DNA of 64,000 nucleotides from the NCBI GenBank assembly GCA_963837415.1, contig CAWING010000012.1, forward strand, positions 532,417 through 596,416, given 5' to 3'. Made by a program: the position numbers and the translations under genes. Of this stretch, positions 14,382 to 63,011 are shown one piece after another. The notes below the pieces were generated by a model. The model ran no database searches, was not told the origin of the DNA, and saw only the letters and a program-made list of their open reading frames with translations. The DNA comes from an uncultured Bacteroidota bacterium. GTDB lineage: Bacteria; Bacteroidota; Bacteroidia; Cytophagales; Cyclobacteriaceae. Position 1 is the stretch's first letter, and every line of letters begins with the position of its first letter.

Positions 14382-14470
14382 TATCAGTTATCCGTTATCG
14401 TTATCAGTTATCCGTTATCGTTATCCGTTCATTTGTATTTGTATTACCATTAACGGATAACTGATAACGG
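14382..14470. repeat. Heptamer-periodic inverted repeat, GTTATC family
   Basis: CGTTATCAGTTATCCGTTA (14399-14417) is the perfect reverse complement of 14451-14469; 20-bp tandem duplication at 14382-14421. Confidence 0.9.
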
Positions 14471-15402
14471 CTATATCTTGTCCGCTATGCGCAACTTGGC
14501 GCTTCGCGCTCTGGTATTTTTTGCTATCTCCTCTTCTGTCGCTTCTATCGGTTTTCGATTCACAGCTTTAAAAGGTTTGATCTCATTACCAAAAAAATCT
14601 TTCTCTACTTCGCCAAATACTTTGCCTTTGTTGATGTAGTTCTTTACCATTCTATCTTCAAGCGAATGGTACGACATCACCACCAACCTTCCGTCTCTCA
14701 TAATACACTTCGCCACATTGGTGCAAAAAATCTTCAAGAGCTTTCATTTCTTCATTGACTTCTATGCGAAGCGCTTGAAACACCTGGGCGAAATATTTAT
14801 TCTCCTTACCTCTGGGAGCGATAGGTTGAAGCGTTGCTTTTAATCCTCTGTTCTCGCAAAAGTTTTTACCTTTCTTTGTTGAGTCATCAATCTGGCAGCA
14901 GTTTTTGCATTCTTCAATTCACCATACATGCCAAAGATTTTATGGAGTTGCTCTTCACTGTATTCATTCAATATCCTAGCTGCCGTAAGCGGTATCGTCT
15001 TTATCCATGCGCATATCCAACGGGCCATCAAATCGCGTGGAGAAACCACGTTCCGGAGAATCAATCTGGTGCGATGAAATACCTAGATCCGCTAGAATGC
15101 CGTTAACCTCAGTAATACCATGCAACTTCAAGTACCGTTTCATGTACATGAAATTGGTCTGACAAAATGTAAAAGAACGATTCTTGATTTTTTCTGCTTC
15201 CCTCTTAGCATCCTCATCCTGATCGAAAGCCAGCAGTCGTCCGTCTTTCAGGTTCTCAAGAATTTTTAAACTATGCCCTCCTCCTCCAAACGTTGCATCC
15301 ACATAAGTACCTCCCGGCCTGAATCTCTAACGCTTCAATACATTCGTTCAGCATCACAGGCTGATGATAGTTTCGAGATTCGAGCTCGGAGCTTTGAGTC
15401 AC
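14471..15402 (-). CDS. rsmH: 16S rRNA (cytosine1402-N4)-methyltransferase RsmH, split by frameshifts
   Basis: YHQPVMLNE, DATFGGGGHS, DLGISSHQ, PLDMRM, FQALRIEVN, SYHSLEDR, RARSAKLR; candidate GTG start at 15402. Confidence 0.9.
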
Positions 15403-15799
15403 GATTTTTCAACAGCTTTGATGAAACTTTGTAACATCTTTTGCTCTTCGTCAATGTGTTTTAGAAGTGTTCCAATTAAATCCGAATTACCAAACCTTAA
15501 TAATTCAATAATTAAAACCTGAGTCTCCAATTCATGTGTCGATCAAAGTGAGGTTTCGAGATAATTTTTATAATCCTTCCTACTAGTCTTAGCACTGCCT
15601 TCTGCAATATTTGACGGTATCGAAACTGCACATCTTGTTATTTGACTTCGCAACCCATATTTTTCTTCATCAGGAAGCTGTTTTGCTAATTTGTACGCCG
15701 CCACTACGATTTCTATTCCCTTTTGCCATACTTTCAATTTTTTATAATTTTTCATACATAGTTATCAACTCATAGCTCACAACTCATAACTCGTAACTT
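15368..15799 (-). mobile_element. Putative cassette: four-helix-bundle gene enclosed by inverted 5 x 7-bp GAGNT repeat arms
   Basis: Left arm TAGTTTC GAGATTC GAGCTCG GAGCTTT GAGTCAC (15368-15402); right arm TCAACTC ATAGCTC ACAACTC ATAACTC GTAACTT (15765-15799); interrupts the normally adjacent mraZ-rsmH pair. Mobility is inferred. Confidence 0.6.
15399..15755 (-). CDS. Four helix bundle protein (TIGR02436 / 23S rRNA-IVS protein family), 118 codons with an in-frame TGA at codon 71
   Basis: KLKVWQK...LPDEEKYGLRSQITRCAVSIPSNIAEG, then SL*STHELETQ...EEQKMLQSFIKAVEKS in the same frame; the TGA sits where the family has Gly (GS..E.ETQ). Confidence 0.88.
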
Positions 15800-15801
15800 A
15801 A

Positions 15802-16245
15802 TTATTCATTAAGGTGCTTTTCTGCCAGTTTTGAAAACTCACGTTGGTCCGTAATCAAGTGCTTCTCATACACAGTAGGATTCCAGACAACTACTTTGTT
15901 ACCCATACCGATCAATACCACATCTTTCTCAAGCTGAGCATAGGCGAGCATATTTTTCTGAATTAGAAATCGGCCATTTAAATCCAACTCAACGGAAGCA
16001 ACACTGGAAAAAAAGTTAAGCTGCAGCTGACGATACTCTTCATTAAACTCACTAAGACCAGAAACTTTTGAGAGTACTTTTTTGAACTCCAGTTGCGGAT
16101 AAATAATAAGGCATGGTTCAAACCCTCTTCGGATGATAAGCTCGTTGTTTCCCTCTTCAGGCAACTGGCTTTTAATCCGCGCAGGAAGAACGAGCCTTCC
16201 TTTAGGATCTAATTTGCTCTCATATTTTCCGGTGAAAAAGGTCAT
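15802..16245 (-). CDS. mraZ: Division/cell wall cluster transcriptional repressor MraZ
   Basis: Two DxxGR repeats (DPKGR, DLNGR); first gene of the dcw cluster. Confidence 0.95.
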   Translation of the reverse strand: MTFFTGKYESKLDPKGRLVLPARIKSQLPEEGNNELIIRRGFEPCLIIYPQLEFKKVLSKVSGLSEFNEEYRQLQLNFFSSVASVELDLNGRFLIQKNMLAYAQLEKDVVLIGMGNKVVVWNPTVYEKHLITDQREFSKLAEKHLNE

Positions 16246-16276
16246 AGACGTAGTGGTTGTCTCTAACTCGTAAAAG

Positions 16277-16350
16277 CAAACTTATATAATTTTGAACCAC
16301 TTTCAACCACTTTCATCCACTTTTTTACATTTTATCCCCATTATTTACCA
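16277..16350 (-). promoter_or_regulatory. dcw promoter with 10-bp-spaced GTGG MraZ boxes
   Basis: -7 element TAAGTTTG (16277-16284), TTG 19 nt upstream; GTGGATGAAA GTGGTTGAAA GTGGTTCAAA repeats at 16291-16320 plus degenerate units to 16350. Confidence 0.75.
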
Positions 16351-16510
16351 AAACATGAGTTAAAATGCTTTCACGGTCGACATAACTTTCAAATAGTCAG
16401 TTGACAGAAGAGCCAGGTGGTTCGAAGGTGCCCGAAGAAAAAGTTCGAAGATGTGACCTTCCTTGAGCCTACGGATTCTAGAGATAAATCATTGTCCAAC
16501 CTAAATCCTA

Positions 16511-17302
16511 ATGCTTATGAAAACTGAAATTGGAGTCTCCGACACATGGGACGATCTTGTGTTTGAAAACAAAAACAAAGAGTACGGAGCTTATCGTGTA
16601 AGAAAATCTTACTCGCAAAATATGATCAACGGGGTTGGACTCAGTGTTGCAGCAGCATGCTTGTTGATTGTTCTTCCTAACTTTTTATCACAAACAGAGA
16701 CTAAGGAAGCCGGTCCGCTTTCCAAACTTTTGCCTGAACTTCCTGTTGTCGAATTTTCTCAACCTCCCTCACTTGAAGTCCCACCTCCTGCGCAGCCGGT
16801 AACGCCTCCCCTGGCCGTAAACGCCAACCTAGCTCCCCAAGTAACAACTGAAACAGTTGAAACAGAACTTCCAACAAATGACGCGATAAATGCCTCCATG
16901 GTGGAACCAGGAATTGGCGATGGAATTTTACCTAACACACCCGGACCGGATATTTTATCCCAGCCCGTAATTGTCGAAACTGGAATTGTAGATTTTGCTG
17001 AGGTAATGCCTCAGTATGAAGGAGGACTGAAGGAGATGATGAAATTTCTTCAAAGAAAAATTAATTATCCTTTGAGGGCAATCCGTATGGAAACAGAGGG
17101 TACCGTGTTTGTGGCTTTTGTTGTAGACAAAGATGGAAAAGTTACAGACGTCAATGTTGTGAGAGGTATCAGTCCTGAATGCGACAAAGAAGCTGCCCGT
17201 GTGATCTCGTTAATGAAGTCGTGGACGCCTGGCATGCAGAATCATAGAGCTGTATCCGTGAGAATGACATTACCAATTAAGTTTCAACTCAAACAAGAGT
17301 AG
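16511..17302 (+). CDS. tonB: Energy transducer TonB
   Basis: DDLVFENKNKEYGAY N-terminus, TM, Pro-rich linker, TonB_C (YP..A...EGTVFVAFVVDKDG). Confidence 0.9.
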   Translation: MLMKTEIGVSDTWDDLVFENKNKEYGAYRVRKSYSQNMINGVGLSVAAACLLIVLPNFLSQTETKEAGPLSKLLPELPVVEFSQPPSLEVPPPAQPVTPPLAVNANLAPQVTTETVETELPTNDAINASMVEPGIGDGILPNTPGPDILSQPVIVETGIVDFAEVMPQYEGGLKEMMKFLQRKINYPLRAIRMETEGTVFVAFVVDKDGKVTDVNVVRGISPECDKEAARVISLMKSWTPGMQNHRAVSVRMTLPIKFQLKQE

Positions 17303-17356
17303 AGAAATTCAACTCAATCGCCACTGTGTTTCAGTGGTGATTCTTTTAAGTTACAC

Positions 17357-18493
17357 TTATTCTAAAGCTCTGAAATATTCTTCAGTATGCTCGCCCAGAT
17401 GTGGCGGCTTCAAAAGTGGTTTTGATTTTCCCGTAGGGGTGAGCCAACTAGTCGCTTTCGCTGCAAAATTTAGTATGCCCCTTATTCCTTCACTTTCAAT
17501 TATCAACTCCCTAGCCTCAGGCATCTCAAATACTTGCTGAACATTTTGAATTAGACCCGCTGGAACCTTTGCACGATGAATTTCCGCCAACAATTCATCC
17601 GACAAATATTGTCCGATGCGCGATTGTAATACTGAGTTAAGCTCAAGTCTCATCTCAACGCGTGATGCATTGGTCCTAAATTTCTCGTCCGTTCCCAGAG
17701 ACCCGATTTCAAGCAACGAGCATAAATCCTGGAACTGCCTGTCGCTGCCTATAGCCAACAATACTTCTTTTTTATCTTTGGTCTGAAAAACGTCACCATA
17801 TGGCGCTATGTTCGGATGCGAAGAACCTTGCTTCGTCGGAAGTTTATCGGCGACCAGCCAATTCGTAGCCTGATTTGCCAGGGAAGAGACGGCAGCCTGA
17901 ATTAGAGACACCTCAACGCAATCGCCTTTACCGGTTCGTTCCCGCTTCCATAACGCCAATAGAATTGCCTCTTTTAAATGATGACCTGCAAGTATATCCA
18001 TCAAAGCAACTGGCATTTTCAATGATTGGCCTCCAGGTTCCCCGTTCATTGAAATAAATCCAGCTTCAGCTTGTATGATGGCATCGTAGCCAACGCGAGG
18101 GTTATCGTTTCCATATCCGGTAATTTGGCCATAGATCAATTTTGGATTCAGAGTTGACAATGTTTCATAATCAACGCCAAGTTTCTCCGCATCGCCTGGC
18201 TTGTAGCTCGCAATAACAATGTCAGCTTTTCGAGCTAATGCGTGAACAATCTTTCGTTCATTCTCAAGATTAAGATCCAGCGCAACGGATTTCTTGCCCC
18301 AATTCACGGAGCAGAAATACGCAGAGCGATCATCGGTTTGCTCACCGGCCGCTTTCCAACTCCTGGTCACATCGCCTCCAGTAAGAGCATTCTCTATTTT
18401 TATTACTTCTGCCCCAAGTTCAGCAAAAAATTGACCTACACTTGGTCCTGCCAATACCGACGCCAGCTCCAATACTTTTAACTCGTCAAACAT
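17357..18493 (-). CDS. CaiB/BaiF family III CoA transferase
   Basis: VLELASVLAGP, LGAEVIKIE, NWGKKS, GYDAIIQA, PPHLGEHT. Confidence 0.92.
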   Translation of the reverse strand: MFDELKVLELASVLAGPSVGQFFAELGAEVIKIENALTGGDVTRSWKAAGEQTDDRSAYFCSVNWGKKSVALDLNLENERKIVHALARKADIVIASYKPGDAEKLGVDYETLSTLNPKLIYGQITGYGNDNPRVGYDAIIQAEAGFISMNGEPGGQSLKMPVALMDILAGHHLKEAILLALWKRERTGKGDCVEVSLIQAAVSSLANQATNWLVADKLPTKQGSSHPNIAPYGDVFQTKDKKEVLLAIGSDRQFQDLCSLLEIGSLGTDEKFRTNASRVEMRLELNSVLQSRIGQYLSDELLAEIHRAKVPAGLIQNVQQVFEMPEARELIIESEGIRGILNFAAKATSWLTPTGKSKPLLKPPHLGEHTEEYFRALE

Positions 18494-18683
18494 GACAGGA
18501 AGAATACTGATTTAATATCAAAATTCAAATTGATCTCTGAATGTCTTATACTGACCATAAACCTTAACCGTAAACGGTTGCAATAGGTGGGCCCAGCCCT
18601 TTAATGAATGTTCCGGAGTCATTCTCCTGAATTGTAAATGATTTCCCGCATTTTTGTGTTCTGTCGTTCAGAAAAACTTCAAT

Positions 18684-19922
18684 ATGAGACAAGCTTGCAT
18701 TGCCATCTTTTTTTGCATCCTACTAGCAGGCTGTTTTTTTGAAAAGGAAACTTCCGCGGATCTCAAACCCGGTATATGGCGTGCGACTGTAGAAATTCAA
18801 GGCAGGGAATTGCCTTTTAATTTTGAAGTTAAAAAAGTCAATTCAAAAGACATCAACATCTATTTGAGAAATGCGGATGAACGATTATTGCTGGACGAAG
18901 TAACAATTACAGGCGATTCCATTGACATTGTACTGCACGTGTTTGACGCGAATTTTAAAGCACGAATTAAAGGTGATACGCTGGAAGGACTTTTCATTAA
19001 AAACTATGCAACGGATTACAGGCTTCCATTTCGGGCGGTATACGGTCAAGCCTATCGTTTTGTAAAAAGTGCAAACCAGCTTGAGGTGCCCGACTTCAGC
19101 GGTAAATATGAAGTGAAATTTATCCATGAAGGAGACACTACACCTGCCGTTGCAATTTTTCATCAAGAGGGTGATAGCGTTACGGGCACCTTTCTGACAC
19201 CTATTGGCGATCATAGATATTTACAAGGAAATGTCGCTAATAGTACCTTGCAACTGAGCACATTTGATGGCAATTATGCTTACTTGTTTACGGCTACCAA
19301 ACTACTAGACGGAACTCTTTCAGGAAAATATTATTCAGGTAAAACCCTGATGCAATCGTGGATCGCAAGCAAAAATGATAATCCGACAATGCCCGACGCT
19401 GAAAAACTTACCTATCTTAAACCAGGATATGATCGGGTTTCTTTTAGCTTTCCCGATGTAAATGGAAATAAGATCAGCCTTACCGACGATAAGTACAAAA
19501 ATAAAGTGGTGGTACTCCAACTTACGGGAACGTGGTGCCCCAACTGCATGGATGAAACAAACTTCTTAGTACCTTGGTATAGGGAAAATAAAGATAGAGG
19601 TGTTGAAATTATTGGCCTGGCATACGAGCGCAAAGATGATTTTACCTATGCCAGTACCCAAGTTAAAAAAATGATTGATAAAATCGAAATCCCTTATGAT
19701 GTTGTGATCGCCGGTACGAATGTAAAAGCATCTGAAACTTTACCTATGCTAAATAAGGTGATGGCTTTTCCAACATCAATTTTTATCGGCAAAGATGGAA
19801 AAGTAAAAAAGATACATACTGGTTTTTCAGGGCCAAGCACTGGCGAGTACTACGAACAATTCAAACAGGAGTTTAACGAAACTATAAATGAACTTTTAGC
19901 TGAGAAGGTAGCGTTAAACTAG
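18684..19922 (+). CDS. TlpA-family disulfide reductase lipoprotein (thioredoxin-like)
   Basis: Lipobox LAGC after ATG 18684; WCPNC motif; AFPT cis-Pro loop. Confidence 0.85.
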   Translation: MRQACIAIFFCILLAGCFFEKETSADLKPGIWRATVEIQGRELPFNFEVKKVNSKDINIYLRNADERLLLDEVTITGDSIDIVLHVFDANFKARIKGDTLEGLFIKNYATDYRLPFRAVYGQAYRFVKSANQLEVPDFSGKYEVKFIHEGDTTPAVAIFHQEGDSVTGTFLTPIGDHRYLQGNVANSTLQLSTFDGNYAYLFTATKLLDGTLSGKYYSGKTLMQSWIASKNDNPTMPDAEKLTYLKPGYDRVSFSFPDVNGNKISLTDDKYKNKVVVLQLTGTWCPNCMDETNFLVPWYRENKDRGVEIIGLAYERKDDFTYASTQVKKMIDKIEIPYDVVIAGTNVKASETLPMLNKVMAFPTSIFIGKDGKVKKIHTGFSGPSTGEYYEQFKQEFNETINELLAEKVALN

Positions 19923-19956
19923 ATTGTGTATCTGATTAATCCATCGCATTTAAATC

Positions 19957-21189
19957 ATGGAGCCTCAAAATCAAGCGGCCGTAGGTAAAAATGAAGAACC
20001 TGTGTCAAAGGTAAAAGGGAAACGCGTGGTGGTAGGTTTATCCGGAGGCGTCGATTCCAGTGTAGCTGCTTATCTCTTAAAAAAGGAGGGTTATGAGGTT
20101 ATCGGTATGTTCATGAAGAACTGGCACGATGACTCGGTGACAATTAGCAAAGAATGTCCCTGGCTTGATGATAGCAACGATGCCATGATCGTGGCGCAAC
20201 ATTTGGGAATACCCTTTCAAGCGATCGACCTAAGCAAAGAGTACAAAGAACGAATTGTAGACTACATGTTTGCTGAATATCAACAAGGTCGAACTCCAAA
20301 TCCTGATATACTTTGCAACCGGGAAATCAAGTTTGATATTTTTCTGAACACAGCAATAAAGATCGGCGCCGACTATGTTGCTACCGGCCATTATACGCGC
20401 AAAGCGGAAATAGAAAAAGATGGAAAGATAATTTATCGATTGCTCAGCGGAAAAGATGCTAACAAAGACCAGAGTTATTTTTTATGTCAGCTTACACAAA
20501 GTCAGTTGTCAAAATCTATATTTCCCATCGGCGAATTGCTGAAGCCTGAGGTTAGGGAAATCGCCAGGCAACAAAATTTGGTCACCGCGGATAAAAAAGA
20601 TTCACAAGGGTTATGTTTTGTAGGCAAAGTACATTTGCCCGATTTTTTGCAACAACGCCTCGAAACTAAAAAAGGGAAAGTGATCGAGATCCCATTTGAT
20701 TCCCCAATTTTCAAAAATGGTTTCGATTCAACAGATCTGAAAAATATTTCTTCACGTTATGATCTGGCACCGGAACAAGGGGAAATAATTGGTGAGCACA
20801 AAGGCGCCCACTATTATACCATCGGACAACGCAAAGGGTTAAACCTCGGTGGGAATGAGAAACCTCTATTTATCATTGGTACTGATACGAAAGAAAATAT
20901 TATTTACACCGGAATGGGCGACGATCATCCGGGTTTATATCGCAAGGGATTGTTTATCCCTAAAGGTGATGAGCATTGGATCCGCGAAGATTTGAAATTA
21001 ACAGTAGGTGAATCAAAAAAATACTCAGCGCGCGTACGCTATCGCCAACGTCTTGTGACTTGCTTATTGAGTCAACGTTCAGAAGGGCTTTACATTATTT
21101 TTGACACGCCGCAGAAAAGTATAACCCCTGGTCAGTTTGCTGCTTGGTATGATGGGGAAGAATTAATTGGATCTGGAGTCATCAGCTGA
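19957..21189 (+). CDS. mnmA: tRNA 2-thiouridine(34) synthase MnmA
   Basis: [38 protein letters not shown]. Confidence 0.97.
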
Positions 21190-27882: not shown

Positions 27883-27960
27883 GCTTCAAGCCTCAAGCTT
27901 TAAGCTGCAAGTTGTTCGATTCAATGAAAGGCTTGCAGCTTGCTGCTTGGAGCTTGTAGC
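27883..27960. repeat. Heptamer-periodic inverted repeat, AAGCT family
   Basis: GCTTCAA GCCTCAA GCTTTAA GCTGCAA versus TTGCAGC TTGCTGC TTGGAGC TTGTAGC. Confidence 0.88.
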
Positions 27961-34754: not shown

Positions 34755-34867
34755 AAGTGTTGGAGCGTTGTCCGACGGACTCCGGACTCCTTCGGAGAAG
34801 TTCTAAGTGTTGGAGGACACACCATCCAGTTTTGCCCTTCGTACCTCGTCATTTGTACCTCGTACTT
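34755..34867. repeat. Composite repeat: 11-bp direct repeat around palindromes plus an orphan heptamer arm
   Basis: AAGTGTTGGAG at 34755 and 34805; inside, GTCCGACGGAC, GGACTCC x2, CTCCTTCGGAG; CTTCGTA CCTCGTC ATTTGTA CCTCGTA at 34837-34864. Confidence 0.65.
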
Positions 34868-36670: not shown

Positions 36671-36789
36671 AGTTATCCGTAGCAGTTATCCGTTAATCGT
36701 AATCCGTTATCGGTTAAAGTTATTGGGTTACCCATGTTGTGGAATGCCTAGTATAGATCAACTCGCGATTAACTATTAACGGATAACTA
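36671..36789. repeat. Heptamer-periodic inverted repeat, GTTATC family
   Basis: AGTTATCCGTTAAT (36684-36697) pairs perfectly with 36775-36788; the right arm contains the response regulator TAG stop. Confidence 0.88.
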
Positions 36790-37476
36790 ATTCTGGGCGA
36801 ACTTGTATCCTACTCCCTTTACAGTAGTAATATAATCATCGCCAATCTTCTCACGAACTTTCCGAATATGTACGTCAACTGTTCTTGCCAGCACATATAC
36901 ATCTGAGCCCCATATATTTTGGAGTAAATCTTCGCGGCTAAATACTTTGTTTGGATTCTGGGCTAAAAAGTAGAGCAACTCAAATTCTTTTTTAGGAAGG
37001 TTTATTTCTTTGCCGTTTACCTTTATAGTATAGCTCGTTCTATCAATAGTAAGATCACCAATCGTTATAATACTTGAGGGAGATGATTTTTTTGAATCCC
37101 TTCTGAAGAGGGCGCTTATTCTGCTCATGAGAGCGCGAGGCTTAATTGGCTTCGTGATATAGTCATCGGCTCCAATATCAAAAGCCGCTACTTCAGAATA
37201 TTCTTCCGAGCGGGCGGTAAGAAATACGACAAACATTTTTTGCAACTCTGGCAAATCCCGAAGGAGTCTGCAAGTTTCTACTCCATCCATTTTCGGCATC
37301 ATGATATCGAGGAGCACAAGGTCAGGCACGAATTTTTTTGCAATGTCTACCGCCTTCGCACCATCAAGCGCGGTTTTTACTTCATACCCGTTCTTTTCGA
37401 GGTTGTATTTCAGAAGTTCCAGGATCGGTTCTTCATCATCAACGACAAGCACTTTGTGCATCTGCCTGTTTCCCAT
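36787..37476 (-). CDS. OmpR/PhoB family response regulator
   Basis: VVDDE, LLDIMMP, GADDYITKP, RTVDVHIRK, TVKGVGYK. Confidence 0.95.
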   Translation of the reverse strand: MGNRQMHKVLVVDDEEPILELLKYNLEKNGYEVKTALDGAKAVDIAKKFVPDLVLLDIMMPKMDGVETCRLLRDLPELQKMFVVFLTARSEEYSEVAAFDIGADDYITKPIKPRALMSRISALFRRDSKKSSPSSIITIGDLTIDRTSYTIKVNGKEINLPKKEFELLYFLAQNPNKVFSREDLLQNIWGSDVYVLARTVDVHIRKVREKIGDDYITTVKGVGYKFAQN

Positions 37477-41585: not shown

Positions 41586-41722
41586 AGTTAATCGTTATCA
41601 GTTATCAGTTATCAGTTATCTGTTATCTGTTAATGGTTAATCGTTTAATAGTGATACATCTAAAGCTCACACCCTCTCCATGATTAATCGGTAACAATTA
41701 CCTATTAACGGATAACGGTTAG
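41586..41722. repeat. Heptamer-periodic inverted repeat, GTTATC family (9 left units, 6 right units)
   Basis: AGTTAAT CGTTATC AGTTATC x3 TGTTATC TGTTAAT GGTTAAT CGTTTAA versus TGATTAA TCGGTAA CAATTAC CTATTAA CGGATAA CGGTTAG. Confidence 0.9.
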
Positions 41723-42945: not shown

Positions 42946-43100
42946 CGTTATCTGTTATCCGTTAATAGTTATCCGTTAGACGCAGGCAGGGAATTGGGTT
43001 TGGAACCCCTCTAAAAATTAATCGGTATTCGTATTTGGTTGTGAGTTTTAAAAAATAGCACGTATTCACAATTAACGGATAGCGATTAACGGACCACGGA
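42946..43100. repeat. Heptamer-periodic inverted repeat, GTTATC family, with an 88-nt spacer
   Basis: CGTTATC TGTTATC CGTTAAT AGTTATC CGTTAGA versus CAATTAA CGGATAG CGATTAA CGGACCA. Confidence 0.85.
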
Positions 43101-46311: not shown

Positions 46312-46403
46312 TGTTGTCAGGTAATCGTCATTCCTTATTCGGGGTGTGAGTGTGTTTACTACCACCTTTCTCACGAATAACTATTAACGGATAACGTATA
46401 ACC
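46312..46403. repeat. Degenerate heptamer inverted repeat, GTTATC family
   Basis: Right arm CGAATAA CTATTAA CGGATAA CGTATAA; decayed left arm TGTTGTC AGGTAAT CGTCATT CCTTATT CG. Confidence 0.7.
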
Positions 46404-46442
46404 TAATTGAGTTTGAGAAGGATGGTGATTAACTTTACTGGA

Positions 46443-46661
46443 ATGAAAGGAATTAATTATCTCACGGATCAGAAGGGTAAAAAAACCGCTGTTGTTATTG
46501 ACTTAAAACAATACGGCGAGGCCATAGAAGATTTTCTCGATAGCCTTCAAGCGGCAGCCCGCTCCCACGAGCCAAGTGTTGATTTTGAAAAGACCGTTAC
46601 CCGAATTATTAAAGCTAAATCAAAACGTGGCGTATCAAATCAAAATAAAAAAATCAGCTGA
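46443..46661 (+). CDS. Putative RelB-like antitoxin
   Basis: 72 aa, YLTDQKGKKTAVVID...IEDFLD; overlaps the start of the downstream RelE. Confidence 0.65.
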   Translation: MKGINYLTDQKGKKTAVVIDLKQYGEAIEDFLDSLQAAARSHEPSVDFEKTVTRIIKAKSKRGVSNQNKKIS

Positions 46662-46884
46662 AAAGGAATAGAAAAATTGCCATTAACGGCCATTCTCATG
46701 CTAAGACCAAAAATTGTTGGGTTGGCAAATAACCCATTTCCATCAGGCTTCAAAAAACTAAAAGGTTTTACAAATCAATTTAGAATTAGAATTGGTGATT
46801 ACCGTGTAATTTATAGTATCAATCCGCGCGAATCTTTAATCGAAATTCTAAAAATAGGTGATCGCAAAAAATATTTATGAATAG
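46627..46884 (+). CDS. RelE/ParE family toxin, homopolymer frameshift(s)
   Basis: GTG start MAYQIKIKKSAEKE, then NPFPSGFKKLKG...FRIRIGDYRVIYSI...IGDRK. Confidence 0.85.
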
Positions 46885-46893: not shown

Positions 46894-47263
46894 ATGCGTG
46901 GTCTTTATACAATAATCCTTTTAATTCTATCTAACGCCTTCATGACGTTTGCCTGGTATGGACATCTTAAATTCAAGGAATTTAAGTGGGGCCAGAGCTT
47001 ACCGCTCCTTGCTGTTATTCTCATTAGTTGGGGCATTGCTTTTTTTGAATATCTCTTACAGGGTTCCTGCCAATAGATTGGGATTTAAAAATTATGGAGG
47101 GCCTTTTTCTCTGGTGGAATTGAAAGTTGTCCAGGAAGTAATAACACTTGTTGTCTTTGTTGTTTTTTCAATTGTCTTTTTTAAGACCGAAACCTTTCGC
47201 CTGAATCACCTAATCGGATTTATTTTTTTAGTGCTGGCCGTTTATTTTATATTTAAAAGGTAA
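46894..47263 (+). CDS. DMT family protein (DUF486-like), one frameshift
   Basis: SNAFMTFAWYGHLK, SWGIAFFEY, VPANRLG, LKVVQEVITL. Confidence 0.85.
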
Positions 47264-47270: not shown

Positions 47271-47340
47271 CCGTTAATACTATCCGTGAATCGTCCTTGA
47301 GAATGTGGATTAACCATTAACGGATAACGATTAACGGTTA
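47271..47340. repeat. Heptamer inverted repeat, GTTATC family
   Basis: CCGTTAA TACTAT CCGTGAA versus GGATTAA CCATTAA CGGATAA CGATTAA CGGTTA; includes the TAA stop of the acyltransferase. Confidence 0.8.
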
Positions 47341-48258
47341 CACTACTTCCTCTCCCGGCTTTGTCTTCCATCGCTCATGCATCCATACCCATTGCTCCGG
47401 ATGCTGCCGTATGACATCTTCTATAAAATGGGTGAGTACCTGCGTATTGGACACTATATCTGCCTCCTCCTCACCCGTTATTGTAATCGGTATTTCAGGT
47501 AAAATGTGCATATGTTGTTTCCAATCTTTGCCCAGATAAACATACGTTGGAACGATGGCTGCGCCTGTTTTCATTGCGAGTACAGTAGCGCCTACGGGAG
47601 TAGCAGCGGGCTTCCCAAAGAAATTTACAAACCTGCTTTTTACTTTCGTATCTTGATCAATCAATAAAGCAACGGAGCCGCCGGACTTTAGGACTTTGAT
47701 CAACCGAAAAGTTTCCTTTCCTCTTTGAATAGCAATAGCTCCATGCATATTGCGATAATCCCAAAGCAATTCATTTAAACGCTCATCCTTTAATGGGGTT
47801 CCAATAATGTTTGGGTTGAGACCGCGCAAAGCCATGTTGCTTACCTGTAAATCGAACGCACCAAGGTGGCAGGTTAAAAAAATAACACCTTTGCCCTTTT
47901 TAATCGCATTCTCATAATTTTCTAATCCGTGCGTAACTAGAAAATTTTCAAGGTCGGCCAATGTTCTTACGCGAGTCGCCCGAAGCATCTCTCCGGTATT
48001 TTTTCCCAACATTTCAAACATATTTGCTGCTAATGTTTTTACATCCTTTTCAGTTTTTCCTTCGAAGGCATAAGACAGATTCTTTATAACAAGTTTGCGC
48101 GTTTGAGCCGCGAATAAATAGGCTGCCCTTCCTAAAACGCCGCAGAATCTTAGCCACATAGTTCGCGGCATGAGATTAGACAGGAAGATCAAAAACTGCA
48201 CAAATCGGTATACAATTGTATACCTTATCTTCCTTCTCATTTTTTTTGCGTTCGACAT
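47338..48258 (-). CDS. Lipid A biosynthesis lauroyl/myristoyl acyltransferase (LpxL/HtrB family)
   Basis: HLGAFD (HxxxxD), LLIDQD, FFGKPA, PEQWVWMHERWK. Confidence 0.88.
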   Translation of the reverse strand: MSNAKKMRRKIRYTIVYRFVQFLIFLSNLMPRTMWLRFCGVLGRAAYLFAAQTRKLVIKNLSYAFEGKTEKDVKTLAANMFEMLGKNTGEMLRATRVRTLADLENFLVTHGLENYENAIKKGKGVIFLTCHLGAFDLQVSNMALRGLNPNIIGTPLKDERLNELLWDYRNMHGAIAIQRGKETFRLIKVLKSGGSVALLIDQDTKVKSRFVNFFGKPAATPVGATVLAMKTGAAIVPTYVYLGKDWKQHMHILPEIPITITGEEEADIVSNTQVLTHFIEDVIRQHPEQWVWMHERWKTKPGEEVV

Positions 48259-48384: not shown

Positions 48385-48888
48385 ATGAAAACTCTTTATA
48401 TTATACGCCACGCTAAATCCAGTTGGGCAAATCCTGACCAGCAGGATTTTGAAAGAGGATTAAACGACCGTGGTAAACGAGATGCGCCTCGTATGGGCAC
48501 GCGGTTGAAAGAAAAAAATATTTATCCGGATCAAATGCTAAGCAGCACAGCCAAACGTGCCCTCTCCACCGCAAAGAGGATTGCTAAAATTCTGAATTAT
48601 CCGAAAGATAAGATTAAAGTTAATCGCGAGCTATACCATGCTGATGAAGAAACTGTATTATCCGTAGTTCAGAACCTGAATAACAAACACGATACTGTTT
48701 TTATATATGGACATAATCCCGGATTGACTGATTTTGTTAATACCCTCATGGATGAAGAAGGTAGTATTGACAATATACCTACCTGTGGGGTTGTGGCCTT
48801 TGCTCTTCCAATTGAATCCTGGAAAGAAGTCTCGTGGGGTCGAGGGAAAATGTTATTCTTCGATTATCCTAAAAGAGATGACAAGTAA
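48385..48888 (+). CDS. sixA: SixA-like histidine phosphatase
   Basis: RHAKS, DFERGL..RG, SS.AKRA..TA, GHNP, IPTCG. Confidence 0.85.
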   Translation: MKTLYIIRHAKSSWANPDQQDFERGLNDRGKRDAPRMGTRLKEKNIYPDQMLSSTAKRALSTAKRIAKILNYPKDKIKVNRELYHADEETVLSVVQNLNNKHDTVFIYGHNPGLTDFVNTLMDEEGSIDNIPTCGVVAFALPIESWKEVSWGRGKMLFFDYPKRDDK

Positions 48889-48965
48889 GTTAAGAGTTTC
48901 GAGTTTAAAGTTTCGAATGATCAAGCAGTCACAACTCTCAACTTTAAACTCGAAACTAGAAACTA
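48887..48965. repeat. Heptamer inverted repeat, GAGTT family, without cargo
   Basis: AGTTTCGAGTTTAAAGTT (48895-48912) is the perfect reverse complement of 48940-48957; the outer units overlap the sixA and hslU stop codons. Confidence 0.92.
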
Positions 48966-56072: not shown

Positions 56073-56085
56073 CCAACACTGGCAC

Positions 56086-56997: not shown

Positions 56998-57894
56998 TCA
57001 ATTTATTTTTTCCTTCAGGTAAACATTTCCATTGAAGGTCTCAAAATCCAAGTAAGCACCACCCGATCCGATTTTAAATCGGTTGCCATTTATTTTATAT
57101 TTCATTCCTTGATCATGATTCTTTTTTTCTACCAGGGCGGGAAGAGGTTCAAGCCGATCGATGTTAGTATAAAAGCTGCCGTTGAAACTTTCAAAACTCA
57201 TGCTTGCAGCAAGCCCTTTCTGAAACAATGCGTTGATGTCGCCGTTCAGGGAATAAAATCGGCAATCACGCTGAGGGTTTTGTGCGTACTCCACGTCTAC
57301 ATCTCCGTTGATTGTACTTGCGTGAGCTTCTCGCATAAGATTCTGAAGCCGAATGCTCCCATTTATATTATTGGCAGAGACCACCCCTTTTACATTTTCA
57401 ACTACGATATCACCATCATTAATGGTACTGACAGATAAGTTTAATGAAGAAGGGATTTTGACTGTAAAGTCCATGCTATAGCCATAACTTTCATTACAGT
57501 TCTGACAATTGTTCATCCATGAATAACCCCAGTCTTTGTCCGTACTCGAATGCTTTCGAGGGCGTCTGGTGTTTTTTTCGAACGTCGTGCATAGACCATC
57601 TATATAAAGGATAATGGTGTCGGCAAGATCGATTACGCCAAGTTGAATTTCCGCTTTCCCTTTTTCAAGACGTTCTGGAGTTTTTGCATTTATATTTTTA
57701 GTGACCTCAACCAGAATTTTATCTCCCTCGTAAGCCTGTACTTTAATATCTCCATTTACGTTCGCGATCATCAAAGCGTTATCGACGCTTTTCTTTTCGA
57801 AGGTAAATTCCTTTACAATTTTTTCTGTATGCGTCTGGGCGTTAAGCAGCGTTGTAATACCCATGACAAACATTAATACTAATTTTTGTCTCAT
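56998..57894 (-). CDS. DUF4097 beta-strand repeat exported protein
   Basis: Start MRQKL at 57894; signal peptide; NVNGDI, TINGDV, SLNGDI, TFNGNV repeats. Confidence 0.8.
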   Translation of the reverse strand: MRQKLVLMFVMGITTLLNAQTHTEKIVKEFTFEKKSVDNALMIANVNGDIKVQAYEGDKILVEVTKNINAKTPERLEKGKAEIQLGVIDLADTIILYIDGLCTTFEKNTRRPRKHSSTDKDWGYSWMNNCQNCNESYGYSMDFTVKIPSSLNLSVSTINDGDIVVENVKGVVSANNINGSIRLQNLMREAHASTINGDVDVEYAQNPQRDCRFYSLNGDINALFQKGLAASMSFESFNGSFYTNIDRLEPLPALVEKKNHDQGMKYKINGNRFKIGSGGAYLDFETFNGNVYLKEKIN

Positions 57895-57925
57895 CGTTTT
57901 AATGATTTTAAATTCCAACTCGATG

Positions 57926-58705
57926 TTAGATTACCTGAATACTTTCCTGAATTTTCTTTTTGATATCGGATGGGGTTTCACCATCCTCCAGAATTTTCTT
58001 AAGTTCTTTAACCGCACCCTTCTCCTGCAATTCTGCCATAAGTTCTGCAAGGGCTACCTGTACTAGGGGCGACTTCTGCTCAGCGATGGATCGAACCAGC
58101 AACTCACGCACGCGACTGTCTTTACTATATGCCCTCAATGCATCCAGCGCCGCCAGACGAACACTCACGTTCTCGTCATTATTGAGGGTCTTTAGCAAGG
58201 CATCTGTTACCTTTTGACTAGCCTGATCCATTTCGTGAGTGAGATTAACTGCTTTCAACCGGTCGGTTGCCGATTCCTTCTCCAGTAACGACAACATCAT
58301 CATCTCTTTGAGGTCGCTAATTTCTCTTCCCAGATAGACGATCTGTTCGTCTTTTTTCGTTGGAGACCTTAAGACGTAACCTATTGCTAGACCCAGGAGC
58401 AACGTTATGGATGCAAAAGCCAAACGGGGGGCAAATTCAGGCCAGGAAAAAAAGCTTTTCCAGTTGAATATTTTGTCCTTATTCTTCTCCATCTTCAACA
58501 TCTGATGGAATTTGTCATCCAGGTCAAGCGAGGGAACTGGAGTCTCCAATTTAAAAAGTTGGTTTTCTAACTTTTCAAATCCTTCTAAGTCTTCCAGCTT
58601 AATTCCTCCGTGCTCGATCAGATTCTCGATTTCTTTCAAGTCATCTGGAGTTGCTCCACCTGAGTTATACTTATAAAGTAATCCTTGAATTTTTTCCGCC
58701 TCCAT
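57926..58705 (-). CDS. Membrane-bound anti-sigma factor with HEAT repeats
   Basis: Start MEAEK at 58705; TM; SATDRLKAV, DENVSVRLAALDAL, PLVQVAL. Confidence 0.8.
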   Translation of the reverse strand: MEAEKIQGLLYKYNSGGATPDDLKEIENLIEHGGIKLEDLEGFEKLENQLFKLETPVPSLDLDDKFHQMLKMEKNKDKIFNWKSFFSWPEFAPRLAFASITLLLGLAIGYVLRSPTKKDEQIVYLGREISDLKEMMMLSLLEKESATDRLKAVNLTHEMDQASQKVTDALLKTLNNDENVSVRLAALDALRAYSKDSRVRELLVRSIAEQKSPLVQVALAELMAELQEKGAVKELKKILEDGETPSDIKKKIQESIQVI

Positions 58706-58707
58706 AA

Positions 58708-59283
58708 TTACACGTGTTTTTCCAATTGCGTATATACAGCCTTTAATTCCTGCATTGCCCTGAAAACTTTTACTTTCACTGCACCCTCCGAACACCCCAT
58801 AATTTCACCGATCTCCTTATATTTTTTTTCCTGAAACTTACTAAGCAAGAGTATTTCTCTTTTATCCTCCGATAATTTGTCTAAGGCCATAGACAAAAGA
58901 TTTAGCTCGTCATCTCTTTGAAATTCAGTCGCTCTGTTATCTTCCGATCCTAGCCTGTCTTGCCAATTTTCTATTGAATCTTTTAGGCGAATCTTGTTTT
59001 TTCGGAAATTGTCGTGATTCACATTGCGCGCGATATGAAACATCCATGTTTTGAAGTCACCCTCCCCTCGAAAAAGATAACGGTATTTCAAGATCCGGTA
59101 AAAAACGTTTTGCACTAAATCTTCACTCAGATCCGAATCTTTATTCATCCCATAGAAGAAGCCAAACAACGGCTTCTTATAGCGTGCGAATAACAAGCCT
59201 AGTGTGTCCAGATGGCCATCTCTAACCTTGATCATCAAGGCATTATCAGTCAGTGCTTCCAAATGGGGCGATAAAGTTTTCAA
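58708..59283 (-). CDS. ECF RNA polymerase sigma factor
   Basis: SEDLVQNVF, FKTWMFHIARN, YKEIGEIMGCSEGAVKVKVFRA. Confidence 0.93.
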   Translation of the reverse strand: MKTLSPHLEALTDNALMIKVRDGHLDTLGLLFARYKKPLFGFFYGMNKDSDLSEDLVQNVFYRILKYRYLFRGEGDFKTWMFHIARNVNHDNFRKNKIRLKDSIENWQDRLGSEDNRATEFQRDDELNLLSMALDKLSEDKREILLLSKFQEKKYKEIGEIMGCSEGAVKVKVFRAMQELKAVYTQLEKHV

Positions 59284-59288
59284 AAGGG

Positions 59289-59316
59289 GAAACTTAGGCT
59301 TTTAAGAAAGGTTACA
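59289..59316 (-). promoter_or_regulatory. Candidate ECF autoregulatory promoter
   Basis: TGTAACC-N16-GTTTC ending 5 nt before the TTG start. Confidence 0.45.
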
Positions 59317-59533
59317 AGGTTAAAGGTAAGCTTTCTATAAATTTGTTGGAGGGGCCCGGGAGGTGGTCTCCTAGCAAAAATAGCGGGGTTGAAATCTACC
59401 TTGGATATGTATTGATCTATAAAAAATTCTTATCCTGATGGGAGTGTGGCAGATTTAGAAAAAGAAAGTAGTACACTTCCTCCATCCCATTCTAAAATGG
59501 CAATTTAGGTGATAGACACGAACCTATTATGTA

Positions 59534-60130
59534 TTACGGATTTCTGGAGTGAAGTTTATTCCGTTCATCCTGGAGCTCGCGTGATAGTTTCGTTTGTCTT
59601 TCCATTGCCCGTTGTTTGTACTCCTCAAACTCATGCGTTAAAGCACCCACGGCAAGGTTTCGCTCGCTCAAAGAATTGCTTTGCAATTTCATTCTTCCTA
59701 TCACCAGCCCTAACATTACCAGCAATCCTGCGATAATGACGGCAACTGTTGTGATAAAAGTCCCTTTGTTAAACTCGATGCCCAGAACATTGATGTGGGT
59801 ACTGGCGTGTTGAATCTCTTCCATGGACTTTTCTTTTGCCTTCAGCCCTTGGATGGACTGGTTCAGTTCTCCTTTTAGTTTGTTGATATTTTGTTGAGCC
59901 ACTTGAAATGCAGCCTCTTTTGCTGCGATCGTATCCTGTGCAATTTTCCAAACCCCGTCAAGTACAGACTCCTTAACAACTTTATAAGCACCGTAAGACT
60001 GAGATTTCCCCTTCATGTACAAAAACCGTTCTCGCAAGGAAGGGTTCTCTTGCAGGGTTTCCGGATCAGATTGAGAAAAGGAAACTTGAAAAGCCAACAA
60101 CCAAACCAACAGAACAAATAGCATTCTCAT
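59534..60130 (-). CDS. Hypothetical exported coiled-coil protein with a C-terminal TM
   Basis: Signal peptide, YKVVK motif, coiled coil, TM, KLSRELQDERNK. Confidence 0.75.
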   Translation of the reverse strand: MRMLFVLLVWLLAFQVSFSQSDPETLQENPSLRERFLYMKGKSQSYGAYKVVKESVLDGVWKIAQDTIAAKEAAFQVAQQNINKLKGELNQSIQGLKAKEKSMEEIQHASTHINVLGIEFNKGTFITTVAVIIAGLLVMLGLVIGRMKLQSNSLSERNLAVGALTHEFEEYKQRAMERQTKLSRELQDERNKLHSRNP

Positions 60131-60259
60131 ATCTCAATTATTTTTTGGTAAAACAAGCTTAAAACTACTGTTCAAGGTAAACACAGTTAAAGTTTAACTG
60201 TTTCAACACCCCTATTAAATCGACAAAAGTCCTCGTTAAGCGATTAAAGGTAGTAATTT

Positions 60260-62224
60260 TTATTTTCTCTTCTTGAAAACCAACTCTGTCTGCTGGACGG
60301 CTATAACCCTATTAAATAATTCCTTCACAAAATGATATTCATTTGACGTAAACACTGGTTTTGCAATTAGCAAAGAGTTATTCACTGTAAGCTTATTTGC
60401 CGCATTTTGAATTTCAAATATGTAACGTCCTCCGTTTTGAGGAAGAGTTAAACCGACCTTGGGAGGTATTCCGTCTATTTCGTACTCTGACGGATACTCA
60501 AGACTAAAGATCATTATTTTTTCCCGGGGCGCTCCGAAATCCACAGGATATAGACGCTCGGAAGATCTAAAGCTATTTGTTTTCAAGGGCTCAATAAAAA
60601 AGGGATTGAACAAAAAATTATTACTATTGAGCGAATCATAACCTTCAATTTCAACCTCCAGTTTTACAACGACTGGTTTTTTCAGGTCTTCGGAATTTTC
60701 GATTTGAAATTTTTTAATAGTTACACTATTCAGGCTATTGGCCACATGGTCTATATATTCCTGCTGACTGCGGAACTTGTTTATCTTCTTTCGTTCCAGT
60801 ACAGCATCGTAGCCTAAATAAGAATATTGAATGGATCCTCGTATTAGACCATCTTTACCCAAGACGAGAGTGATGACAGATAGCGTCTTTTCTTTATCGG
60901 AAGGTTTTATATCGTACCAATACGATTCCTTATCGCCGAGCACCCGTCCTTTTCCATTGAGGCAGCGAACAGGGATTAAACCAAAGGGATGGAAATCGTC
61001 AGTAGCGTCCAGCAAATAAACTTTGTCATTAATATTAAGCTTAGCAACTACATAATTAAATTCACTTAGCACAGGATAGAGTTCAGTGGCCAGGCCGTTA
61101 TCACGTGTGGATAACAGCATTGGCTCTACGTTGAGATTCGCAAACTTTAAAGCAGCAATAAGCGATAAATTAATATCCCCAACGTTTCCTGTTTTAGATT
61201 CAAAAGCTTTTTTAATCCCAAACTCGCTATACTTGCCATACACATCATTCCAGCGGTACCAACCTTTTATAAAATCGTAAATTTTTTGTGCCTTTAGCAA
61301 CTCATTGGTTTCGCCAATAATTATTTGCTCTACCTGATTATCTACGATGTCTTTTCCTCGTTTTATTTGTAATCCAAAATCAACACTTCTTCGCATTTCC
61401 TCGTCTGCATCTTTCCATTCTTTAGTAATCTTATTCGTTCGTCCATCAAAATATTTTATTTCAGATAATTCAAAATTTAACACCGATAGAAAATTTGATT
61501 TTGCTGTCATAAATTCTTCCTCTTGAAAGGCAGGAATATTTTTCATTCCGTATTTCAAACGTGTACAATCTGCCCGACCACCAGAAAAGCAGTCCTTAAC
61601 AATCGAACTTTCATTTTTTGATAAAGTTTGAAACCCTCGTAATGAAATGTTGTAGACATAATTGGCGGGGATCAGACACCAAAATTCACTGTTGATTTTT
61701 GGGATATCGCACTGAAATTCCCAGGACCGAAAATTATAGAAAAAAGGAGATTCCAGTTTGTAAAATACTTCAATGACACTACCAACCTGAACGTTGGGTA
61801 TTGCAAATTTCTTTGCGTTATAATTCTTATTAATATCTTCAGAAAAGATATTTTTTGAATCCAATTTCATTTCCCGTATGGAGCCGTTTTCTACGTTAAA
61901 CGAAGAGGCTTTTACGGTTAAAATTTTTTCAATGCGGCTATCGTTTTTTCTTAAGAAAATTTGAAAATTAGCCTGTGATAGGCCCCCTTTTTTTAAAATT
62001 TTAATCTTGGTATGATATTCAAAAATAAGGTTGTTATCATTGTCGTTGTCCACGTAGGCTTCTCCAAATTCATCTAATATAAGGGCCACTGCAGCCGTAT
62101 CTTTATCGTAATTCTTAATATCCAATTCACGATAAGTAGCTTGACCATACGGAAAACCATTACCCTGAGCATAACTTATAAAATGTAGACAAAGGAATGG
62201 GAACGCTATTAAAAGATGTCGCAT
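60260..62224 (-). CDS. DUF3857 / transglutaminase-like domain protein
   Basis: DTAAVALILD, KIKIL, PNVQVGSVIE, WEFQCDIP, GN..DINL.L, STRDNG, FNYVV, LLDAT. Confidence 0.85.
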   Translation of the reverse strand: MRHLLIAFPFLCLHFISYAQGNGFPYGQATYRELDIKNYDKDTAAVALILDEFGEAYVDNDNDNNLIFEYHTKIKILKKGGLSQANFQIFLRKNDSRIEKILTVKASSFNVENGSIREMKLDSKNIFSEDINKNYNAKKFAIPNVQVGSVIEVFYKLESPFFYNFRSWEFQCDIPKINSEFWCLIPANYVYNISLRGFQTLSKNESSIVKDCFSGGRADCTRLKYGMKNIPAFQEEEFMTAKSNFLSVLNFELSEIKYFDGRTNKITKEWKDADEEMRRSVDFGLQIKRGKDIVDNQVEQIIIGETNELLKAQKIYDFIKGWYRWNDVYGKYSEFGIKKAFESKTGNVGDINLSLIAALKFANLNVEPMLLSTRDNGLATELYPVLSEFNYVVAKLNINDKVYLLDATDDFHPFGLIPVRCLNGKGRVLGDKESYWYDIKPSDKEKTLSVITLVLGKDGLIRGSIQYSYLGYDAVLERKKINKFRSQQEYIDHVANSLNSVTIKKFQIENSEDLKKPVVVKLEVEIEGYDSLNSNNFLFNPFFIEPLKTNSFRSSERLYPVDFGAPREKIMIFSLEYPSEYEIDGIPPKVGLTLPQNGGRYIFEIQNAANKLTVNNSLLIAKPVFTSNEYHFVKELFNRVIAVQQTELVFKKRK

Positions 62225-62286
62225 AAACTGGTTTAGAGATTAGAGATCCCTATCTATTCCCTTTAAGGAACAAGCGTAACCTTGGG

Positions 62287-62934
62287 TTAAGGTGTCAACA
62301 ACTTAAAGGCGTGTGACCACTGATTGTTAAGAAATCCCGGAATACACCAAAGTATACACAACGGTTCAATTGCGCGGGCAGCTTCGGCTTTACCCATATC
62401 GGCAATTTCCCATCCGAATAGATCTAAAATGTGAGAAGTTTCCTCCTTAGAAGCGTCATTATTGCCGCAGATAAACATGGTGGGTTTTCCTCCAGGCAGA
62501 GAGGGATTTACCATCTGCGCATTTCCGACGCTATTAAAAGCTTTAACAAAGTTGGCCTCGGGTGCCAATTTCTGTAGTCTTTCCATCAATGAATATTCTA
62601 ACGTCGTAAAATATTTCAGCACTCCGTTTTCTGGCGGAGCTTCGGATATTGGATTGGTCGTGTCGAGAATGGTTTTACCTTTTAGATTCGACGCAATAGA
62701 TTTTACTAAGGCTTCTGCACCATTCCCTTTTACAGCGAGCACTGCAATGTCGGCGAACTTTGAAGCTTCTTCAAAACTTCCAAGCTTCGCATCCACGTTT
62801 TTACTTTGCCAACTACTAAGCTTTTTCGTGTCGCGGCTTCCAACCATTACTTCATAACCATGTTTTAGAAATCCGCTTGCCAGAACTTGGCCTACCTGAC
62901 CAGATCCAAGAACACCAATTTTAGTTTTAGCCAT
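62287..62934 (-). CDS. NADPH-dependent F420 reductase-like oxidoreductase
   Basis: GSGQVG Rossmann motif, DTTNP, VKAFN, GND, D.G....AR..E. Confidence 0.85.
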   Translation of the reverse strand: MAKTKIGVLGSGQVGQVLASGFLKHGYEVMVGSRDTKKLSSWQSKNVDAKLGSFEEASKFADIAVLAVKGNGAEALVKSIASNLKGKTILDTTNPISEAPPENGVLKYFTTLEYSLMERLQKLAPEANFVKAFNSVGNAQMVNPSLPGGKPTMFICGNNDASKEETSHILDLFGWEIADMGKAEAARAIEPLCILWCIPGFLNNQWSHAFKLLTP

Positions 62935-62942
62935 AGTAATTT

Positions 62943-63011
62943 CAGATTTTAGCTTGACGATTTTAGATTTGATTCAATTTCCAATTTAATCGTACCCAAT
63001 CTACAATCGTA
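62943..63011. repeat. Heptamer inverted repeat, AGATT family
   Basis: CAGATTT TAGCTTG ACGATTT TAGATTT versus AATCGTA ... AATCTAC AATCGTA. Confidence 0.7.

Follow-up and report, generated by a model that had tools for sequence, protein, structure and literature searches.

We analyzed a 64,000-nt window of contig CAWING010000012.1 (assembly GCA_963837415.1, positions 532,417 to 596,416), in which small hairpin-like elements made of tandem 7-nt units are dispersed among protein-coding genes. The host is a soil bacterium of the Cytophagales with an assembly of 5.73 Mb in 14 contigs (41% G+C, estimated completeness 79.6%), and its QueA is 92% identical to that of Chryseolinea serpens. An earlier note, made from the letters of the window, had described ten elements with two inverted arms each, one of them enclosing a four-helix-bundle gene. 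All ten are present where it placed them: the element at 15369..15798 holds a gene of the TIGR02436/PF05635 four-helix-bundle family, a relative of S23p and Avd, and the other nine lack a TIGR02436-type open reading frame (ORF). We refer to the two forms as loaded and gene-less.

The loaded element lies on the minus strand between mraZ and rsmH. Its two 31-nt arms (15369-15399 and 15768-15798) consist of GAGNTNN-type units, and the cargo gene between them (15411-15731, minus strand; TIGR02436, E 9e-30) runs in the direction of the dcw operon, and a single in-frame TGA interrupts it. Its product matches PDB 2gsc, a pentameric X. campestris protein with five chains in the structure (E 4e-16). 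The sole in-frame start codon of rsmH in this window is a GTG that overlaps the stop codon of the cargo gene. Frameshifts or stop codons break rsmH (14471-15302), a DMT-like gene (46894-47263) and a RelE-like fragment (46677-46880) as well as the cargo gene; these split genes are either indel errors of long-read assembly or genuine pseudogenes and, together with the completeness estimate, they limit conclusions on missing loaded copies.

The gene-less elements, to which no strand is assigned, sit close to the ends of genes or in the spacers between them. A hairpin of the GTTATCN family at 14382..14472 separates an upstream minus-strand ORF from the 3' end of rsmH: its left arm of about seven units (14382-14429) faces a right arm of about three (14451-14470), all 19 core positions pair (14399-14417 with 14451-14469), the array is detected by Tandem Repeats Finder (TRF), and the predicted fold reaches -27.5 kcal/mol (z -6.0). 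Two hairpins of the same family flank queA, one upstream (41586..41720; 20 of 24 positions paired, z -3.0, TRF) and one beginning 5 nt past the queA stop codon (42946..43095; 19 of 21, z -2.8). Another (36671..36790; 20 of 22, z -3.9) overlaps with its right arm the stop codon of a phoB-like regulator gene (36787-37476, minus strand; NCBIfam, ORF table), and a weaker GTTATCN hairpin at 47271..47340 (21 of 25, z -2.8) likewise reaches with its right arm into a stop codon, that of gene 47338-48258 on the minus strand. Past the ettA stop codon lies an eroded member of the family (46312..46403; 16 of 21 paired) with an intact right and a degenerate left arm, whose fold is no better than that of shuffles (z -0.8). 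Immediately after it, an antitoxin-like ORF and a truncated RelE/ParE-like ORF occupy 46407-46880, a block wholly absent from the orthologous spacer of other species (L001 and L002).

Other families are represented by an AAGCNNN hairpin of four plus four units around a 20-nt loop (27883..27960; 23 of 29 paired, -40.6 kcal/mol, z -5.5, TRF), by an AGTTTNN hairpin (48887..48965; core 18 of 18 paired, z -5.7) that takes up the whole spacer between a sixA-like gene and its convergent neighbor, reaching into the stop codons of both, and by a weak TAGATTK hairpin between divergent genes (62943..63011; core 12 of 13 paired, z -2.8). The overlaps of arms with stop codons at 36787, 47338, 48886 and 48963, first read from the letters, match the ORF table. 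An orphan arm suspected near 34837 is real (34837..34866) and consists of CGTACCT units in right-arm orientation, i.e., it belongs to the GGTACGA family (F4 of this genome), with no partner nearby; a second suspected orphan arm, near 5478, is not supported, as the place lies inside an ORF and neither TRF nor our array scan detects an array there. The window has no Rfam match at gathering thresholds (including rRNA) and the tRNA scan was also empty. In a search for intrinsic terminators (a G+C-rich stem followed by a T run), no hairpin between 36000 and 49500 was called terminator-like, and the terminator count equaled that of shuffles.

The indel-error signs, with rsmH and the DMT-like gene broken, and the incomplete assembly could suggest that these repeats reflect assembly artefact, or else chance or low-complexity AT-rich sequence. 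Against this, the window holds six strict lag-7 arrays, compared to a mean of 0.34 and a maximum of 2 in 50 second-order Markov simulations, and six strong elements (14382, 27883, 36671, 41586, 42946 and 48887) fold with z between -6.0 and -2.8. The excess is specific to particular lags throughout the genome, the same architecture recurs in dozens of independent genomes, and metagenome contigs from other samples, aligned to the window at ~93% identity, span two of the hairpin stretches. We therefore regard this explanation as refuted, with a practically negligible probability.

Genome-wide, repeat arrays showed a sharp preference for two periods. With a fixed window of 21 positions, lags 7, 8 and 14 gave 106, 46 and 56 arrays, respectively, and each of the other lags from 4 to 15 gave 0-8. 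A looser scan returned 433 merged arrays. Crude gene calls leave 16% of the genome as non-coding DNA, and ~80% of the array bases fall there, a roughly 5-fold enrichment. Adding a search for inverted partners, we identified 159 paired elements at a score of at least 28 (99th percentile of the null, 24), an undercount in that only three of the ten window elements were recovered. Loops mostly measured 2-211 nt, and a second group of ~290-620 nt includes the gene-bearing copies. About nine unit families of 7 or 8 nt coexist: AGTTTNN (31 paired elements), GTTATCN (24), AAGCNNN (20), GTCCAYR (13), GGTACGA (10), GAARATTG / TTGAAAT (8) and TAGATTK (7), as well as the 8-nt families AGTGTTTA (12) and G+C-rich GCGCARAG (16). 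Relative to genes, 144 short-loop elements fell into 35 convergent, 96 tandem and 13 divergent spacers (background of 3569 spacers: 554, 2363 and 652, respectively), with a median gap of 6-11 nt to the preceding stop codon.

In GGTACGA and other families, arms at different loci share the order of their unit variants, indicating that whole arms were copied or homogenised. Among the few signs of recent copying of whole hairpins are three GTCCAT-family hairpins with shared loop sequence, two within C9:40943-41992, bracketing a 249-aa ORF, and one at C3:142053-142198; the loops of the C9 pair are 93% identical over 86 nt, and ~90-93% identical over 29 nt to that of the C3 hairpin. At C8:152557-153131, three tandem hairpins of G+C-rich 8-mers with identical 64-nt loops follow each other at ~228-nt spacing, and a 55-61-aa ORF runs through them.

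About nine families share a single polarity: whichever strand is read, the 5' arm carries the AG-first unit. Periodic AG was found in 98 left arms versus 20 right arms genome-wide, periodic CT was the mirror image, and the reverse complement of a unit was never seen as a left arm except for a few units of the G+C-rich 8-mer family, which we read as junctions between adjacent elements. Candidate cases of reversed polarity proved to be junctions of neighboring elements, the self-palindromic unit AAGCTT, or repeats of a Y1 transposase gene. These counts rest on in-phase AG/CT or on unit orientation by family; G+T content, a poor measure (99 to 56), and GT/AC dinucleotides, confounded by the palindromic GTAC, were discarded. 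The earlier note had proposed an invariant G-N-T core for left arms: the fixed polarity holds in the window as well as genome-wide, but the core is not invariant. AG-anchored units carry T at +1, +2 and +3 in 54%, 68% and 53% of cases, so that G-N-T describes 68% of units and an AG-first rule fits better. Watson-Crick pairing between arms is 0.89-0.94 at unit positions 2-4 and 0.79-0.82 at positions 5-6; the concentration of mismatches at variable positions, and with it the periodic internal loops, is thus real but more modest than had been described. Since an inverted repeat is its own reverse complement, inversion cannot flip it, and the orientation of the 5'-arm unit must be intrinsic to the element. 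A polarity shared by all families hence points to common descent or to a common partner reading one strand. Depletion of G upstream of start codons, considered as another cause, is contradicted by the GTTATCC unit, in which the 3' arm has more G; a telomere-fusion-like origin or the binding of T-rich heptamers by cold-shock proteins would be further conceivable causes.

The architecture of these hairpins recurs around two families of small genes, both of which proved enriched inside arms, a point that the earlier note had put up for testing. This genome encodes eight TIGR02436 and five GxxExxY matches. Periodic inverted arms flank seven of the eight TIGR02436 matches and come from six unit families, each with 8-31 gene-less members besides; the eighth is a fragment without arms. 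TIGR02436 genes were present in 92 of 121 sampled Bacteroidota genomes, from which we examined 82 loci (one each from 29 genomes, most copies of two further genomes, and five congeners). Inverted arms scoring at least 26 flanked 65 of these loci, compared to 4 of 162 shifted control positions. Among the 65, the best period was 7 in 47 cases, 8 in 17 and 6 in one, never 5 or 9-11, and across the Bacteroidota loci polarity was AG-first in 42 cases and CT-first in 3. The median arm measured 31 nt, or about 4-5 units, and the cargo gene was co-oriented with both neighbors in 35 loci and opposed to both in 8. Within a genome, nearly every copy has a unit of its own (17 copies in G082, 13 in G138; genomes compared bear such labels, G000 being the present one). 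Congeners again have loaded cassettes in the AGTTTNN, GGTACGA, AGTGTTGA and GAAAATTG unit families. GxxExxY genes, of the PD-(D/E)XK type, were found in 59 of 101 genomes, between arms with a CRCARAG motif every 8-11 nt across Bacteroidota; unlike the arms of four-helix-bundle genes, these arms are conserved in sequence. In this genome, GxxExxY loci between such G+C-rich CRCARAG arms lie at C11:5718-8258, C11:67218-67788, C8:151032-151588 and C14:126400-126682.

The mraZ-rsmH spacer allowed us to compare orthologous alleles within the genus directly. It is empty in G001 and G010 (spacer of ~5 nt), filled by an unrelated spacer of 170-220 nt in six genomes, and occupied by the gene plus arms in G000, G007, G017, G002 and G006. 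In G013 and G018, arms surround an internally deleted gene, leaving loops of ~110 and ~200 nt, respectively. Empty, loaded and decayed states thus exist at one site, in line with the loaded and empty forms that had been postulated, and the retention of arms around a deleted gene indicates that some short-loop hairpins are relics of loaded cassettes. A common, repeat-free 220-nt spacer is found in G004, G016, G003 and G008 (L129-L132). The units of the cassette vary by species (GAGNTNN here, CAAGCTN in G007, CAGGCTT in G017), and an arm resembles its partner (0.68-0.76) more than its ortholog (0.40-0.48) in G007, G017 and G018, the genomes to which this comparison applies; G000, G002 and G013 were left out because the arm finder had taken internal matches. 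By these sequence comparisons, the arms of one element evolve in concert, keeping period, pairing and polarity, which bears out the suggestion that shape and period are conserved while sequence is free. In the closely related G002 (L134) and G006 (L135), the arms are long arrays with a higher-order period of 14/21 nt that differ by many units, indicating that the arrays grow and shrink rapidly. In G017, the ATG of rsmH lies inside the last arm unit.

A similar comparison was made at queA, where gene order is conserved in related species at ~70-77% nucleotide identity. Both flanking hairpins are absent at ~77% identity: the spacer upstream of queA measures 171 nt here and 29-57 nt in other species (L001, L002), and the downstream spacer ~160 nt here and 38 nt in L002. 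Among the public runs listed as containing this DNA there is no RNA run; the ~93%-identical metagenome contigs span both stretches unbroken, and apparent joints in these contigs were cross-matches among GTTATC arms of other elements.

Taken together, we interpret the window elements as part of a genome-wide population of tandem-repeat hairpins that are built like the arms of small-gene cassettes, with at least some representing cassette remains, and assign this reading a probability of about 0.6. On sequence grounds, the cassettes themselves are of the kind known from ribosomal-RNA intervening sequences (IVS), of which Leptospira provides an ORF-bearing 23S rRNA example. In the IVS of Coxiella burnetii (Warrier et al. 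2016, PMC4990558), a decaying S23p ORF lies inside the 28-bp terminal stem of a 23S rRNA insert; the 5' arm is made of tandem GACAGAT heptamers ahead of the ORF, in a number that differs by strain, and the first of them is where RNase III cuts. The resemblance extends to the gene family (S23p/PF05635/TIGR02436), to a gene looped out between terminal inverted repeats that pair as a stem, and to the unit, since GACAGAT holds AG-A-T and so places AG on the 5' arm as here. The element at 15369..15798 has both the TIGR02436 ORF and the terminal stem. It differs from an IVS in lying between the protein genes mraZ and rsmH rather than in a 23S or 16S rRNA helix, and its genome differs in that most copies are gene-less and many unit families, including 8-nt units, coexist.

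A full cassette has a single small gene flanked on both sides by inverted arrays, whose units measure 7 or 8 nt and whose arms are typically ~31 nt long. Its cargo is a TIGR02436/PF05635 four-helix-bundle gene or, in a second class with CRCARAG-type arms, a GxxExxY PD-(D/E)XK gene. The insert would be transcribed together with the host genes, and its arms would pair as a long imperfect stem to be cut by RNase III as in the Coxiella IVS. Cutting would loop the insert out and so make the cassette tolerable in operons; after loss of the gene, the stem may stay at the 3' end of the message, neutral or mildly useful. By homology to the Coxiella IVS, such an RNase III-processed stem would be the best available mechanism, albeit at less than even odds.

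Several observations weigh against this reading. Gene-less hairpins outnumber loaded ones by ~15 to 1, and for roughly one array in two no inverted partner lies within 600 nt. In this 79.6%-complete assembly, loaded members are missing from the TAGATTK family and from GTTATCN with its 24 elements, although the congener G018 has a loaded cassette of the latter (unit GTTAATC). Of 123 elements, nearly all have a loop with no relation to the others, the exceptions being a few pairs and the G+C-rich family, so that just a single site demonstrates descent from loaded cassettes. When the 123 short loops and the long loops were compared by blastx with 38 cargo proteins, only arm-derived matches were obtained, plus two further weak ones (E 0.015 and 0.036). 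Selection on the transcript would predict more sense-strand G-U-compatible mismatches than antisense-only ones, yet these numbered 72 versus 71 in gene-less hairpins between tandem genes and 57 versus 69 in loaded cassettes. Of the structure-recognised RNA or single-stranded DNA element proposed in the earlier note, the conserved complementarity of the arms is borne out, but no RNA-level signature was found; pairing kept at the DNA level or by arm-to-arm conversion would account for this result at least as well as, and perhaps better than, selection for an RNA stem. Finally, comparing empty with loaded mraZ-rsmH alleles revealed no target-site duplication, and our analysis of this genome and its relatives found neither an enzyme nor a moving copy for the hairpins. 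The proposed insertion at gene boundaries stands in part: the short gene spacers, the 6-11 nt to the stop codon and the queA hairpins, which are insertions relative to other species, argue for it, but no act of insertion, target duplication or enzyme was seen. In this respect the elements also depart from miniature inverted-repeat transposable elements, with which they share short non-coding sequence, inverted ends and many intergenic copies: interiors are not conserved here, target-site duplication is lacking at mraZ-rsmH, and a matching autonomous transposon was not found.

Some of these observations would be expected if the hairpins were self-standing simple-sequence repeats, i.e., if polymerase slippage favored 7-8-nt units and fold-back copying made the second arm. 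The hairpins would persist as stabilisers or processing sites at message 3' ends, akin to repetitive extragenic palindromic (REP) sequences, and the genes would be passengers that land or stay preferentially inside. The surplus of gene-less copies, the unrelated loops without cargo remnants and the unpaired arrays all agree with this, and variation in unit number between G002 and G006 and among Coxiella strains fits slippage. Gene-free heptamer repeats are moreover known from Xanthomonas, Nostoc and Beggiatoaceae (PMC4692102, PMC4679880). Rehm et al. (2015, PMC4692102) describe GGGAATC repeats of Xanthomonas that form convergent inverted pairs at 70-75 sites and lie nearer to the ORF upstream, much as elements here form convergent inverted pairs close behind stop codons. 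TAACTGA repeats occur in Beggiatoaceae, cyanobacteria and five Bacteroidetes (MacGregor 2015, PMC4679880), and rotating the AGTTATC unit of the present genome and taking its reverse complement gives this same unit; cyanobacterial short tandemly repeated repetitive (STRR) hairpins lie between hupS and hupL (PMC2670836). These STRR and long simple-sequence repeats resemble ours in being intergenic tandem 7-nt units of at least three copies, variable in number and in excess over other periods. The papers on them propose G-quadruplexes or translational control and report one unit per genome with no gene link, whereas here no single unit such as CCCCAGT, GGGAATC or TAACTGA dominates and about nine families are tied to two gene families. 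Slippage alone leaves unexplained the one polarity over all these families, 42 to 3 phylum-wide. The shared order of unit variants, e.g., in GGTACGA, speaks for whole-arm copying rather than independent slippage, a decayed gene between intact arms was directly observed, and passive landing does not predict two unrelated gene families each with its own arm type. Overall, we judge such a gene-independent origin unlikely.

The closest conceptual parallel is the partnership between REP doublets forming hairpins (REPINs) and REP-associated tyrosine transposases (RAYTs; Bertels and Rainey 2011, PMC3116915). Like the hairpins studied here, REPINs are abundant intergenic hairpin doublets in families, each associated with one resident gene that the same repeat flanks, and both systems persist for long and pass down vertically. 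In the present system the gene in residence is no Y1 transposase, and the arms are tandem repeats rather than a single palindrome. Even so, each four-helix-bundle paralog could act in trans on the hairpins of its own unit, binding single-stranded repeats or aiding their copying, with one resident master gene per family and the gene-less copies as non-autonomous dependants. The seven loaded cassettes in six families, each with its 8-31 gene-less members, the private units of nearly all copies in G082 and G138, and the recurrence of the same unit families in loaded form among congeners would suit such an arrangement, as would a median arm of ~4-5 units for a protein family that forms homopentamers (2gsc; Lin 2006, as cited in PMC4990558). 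The one-master-per-family pattern is, though, not significant (P = 0.13 for at least six distinct families in seven draws), common descent of gene and arms would give the same pattern with no trans action, the four-helix-bundle protein has no known catalytic activity, and the GTTATCN and TAGATTK families lack a master in this assembly. We thus consider trans action quite improbable.

That a REP-RAYT lifestyle is available in this genome is apparent from its eight Y1_Tnp (RAYT-like) matches. Six of them (C4:38723, C8:109287, C10:16686, C2:733002, C14:88381 and C13:164486) adjoin inverted repeats of another kind, mostly short G+C-rich palindromes, and look like classical REP-RAYT modules beside the heptamer hairpins; one of the six is flanked by a CCTTATTA-type 8-mer repeat. 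No heptamer array lies within 1.5 kb of any of the eight, so RAYT-type enzymes are not an obvious driver of the hairpins.

A bolder and equally doubtful extension would make the pentameric four-helix-bundle protein the sequence-specific partner of its own arms, with one subunit per 7-8-nt unit on the AG-first strand and trans action on gene-less hairpins of the same unit family. If true, this would explain why the period is 7-8 nt, why arms hold 4-5 units, why polarity is fixed and why each gene copy has a private unit. It would also mean that several protein-repeat partnerships like those of REPINs and RAYTs coexist in one genome, built on a non-enzymatic nucleic-acid binder related to Avd of diversity-generating retroelements.

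Returning to the cassette reading, we found no published link of heptamer hairpins in general to TIGR02436 and GxxExxY genes. New here are a census of the whole genome, statistics on polarity, a second class of arms around GxxExxY genes, a series of alleles that includes a decayed gene, and a wobble test with a negative outcome. Under this reading, three puzzles that have stood for decades belong to a single system: heptamer repeats in excess in bacterial genomes, rRNA intervening sequences that bear genes, and the multi-copy small TIGR02436 and GxxExxY genes. Its scale is unusually large, with hundreds of hairpins in about nine unit families within one genome. Annotators should note that arms overlap stop codons and that the start codon of rsmH seems to come from an arm. 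The fixed AG-first polarity and the strict 7-8-nt period set quantitative constraints on any mechanism, and, with no wobble signature at the RNA level, the RNase III model should not be assumed without question.

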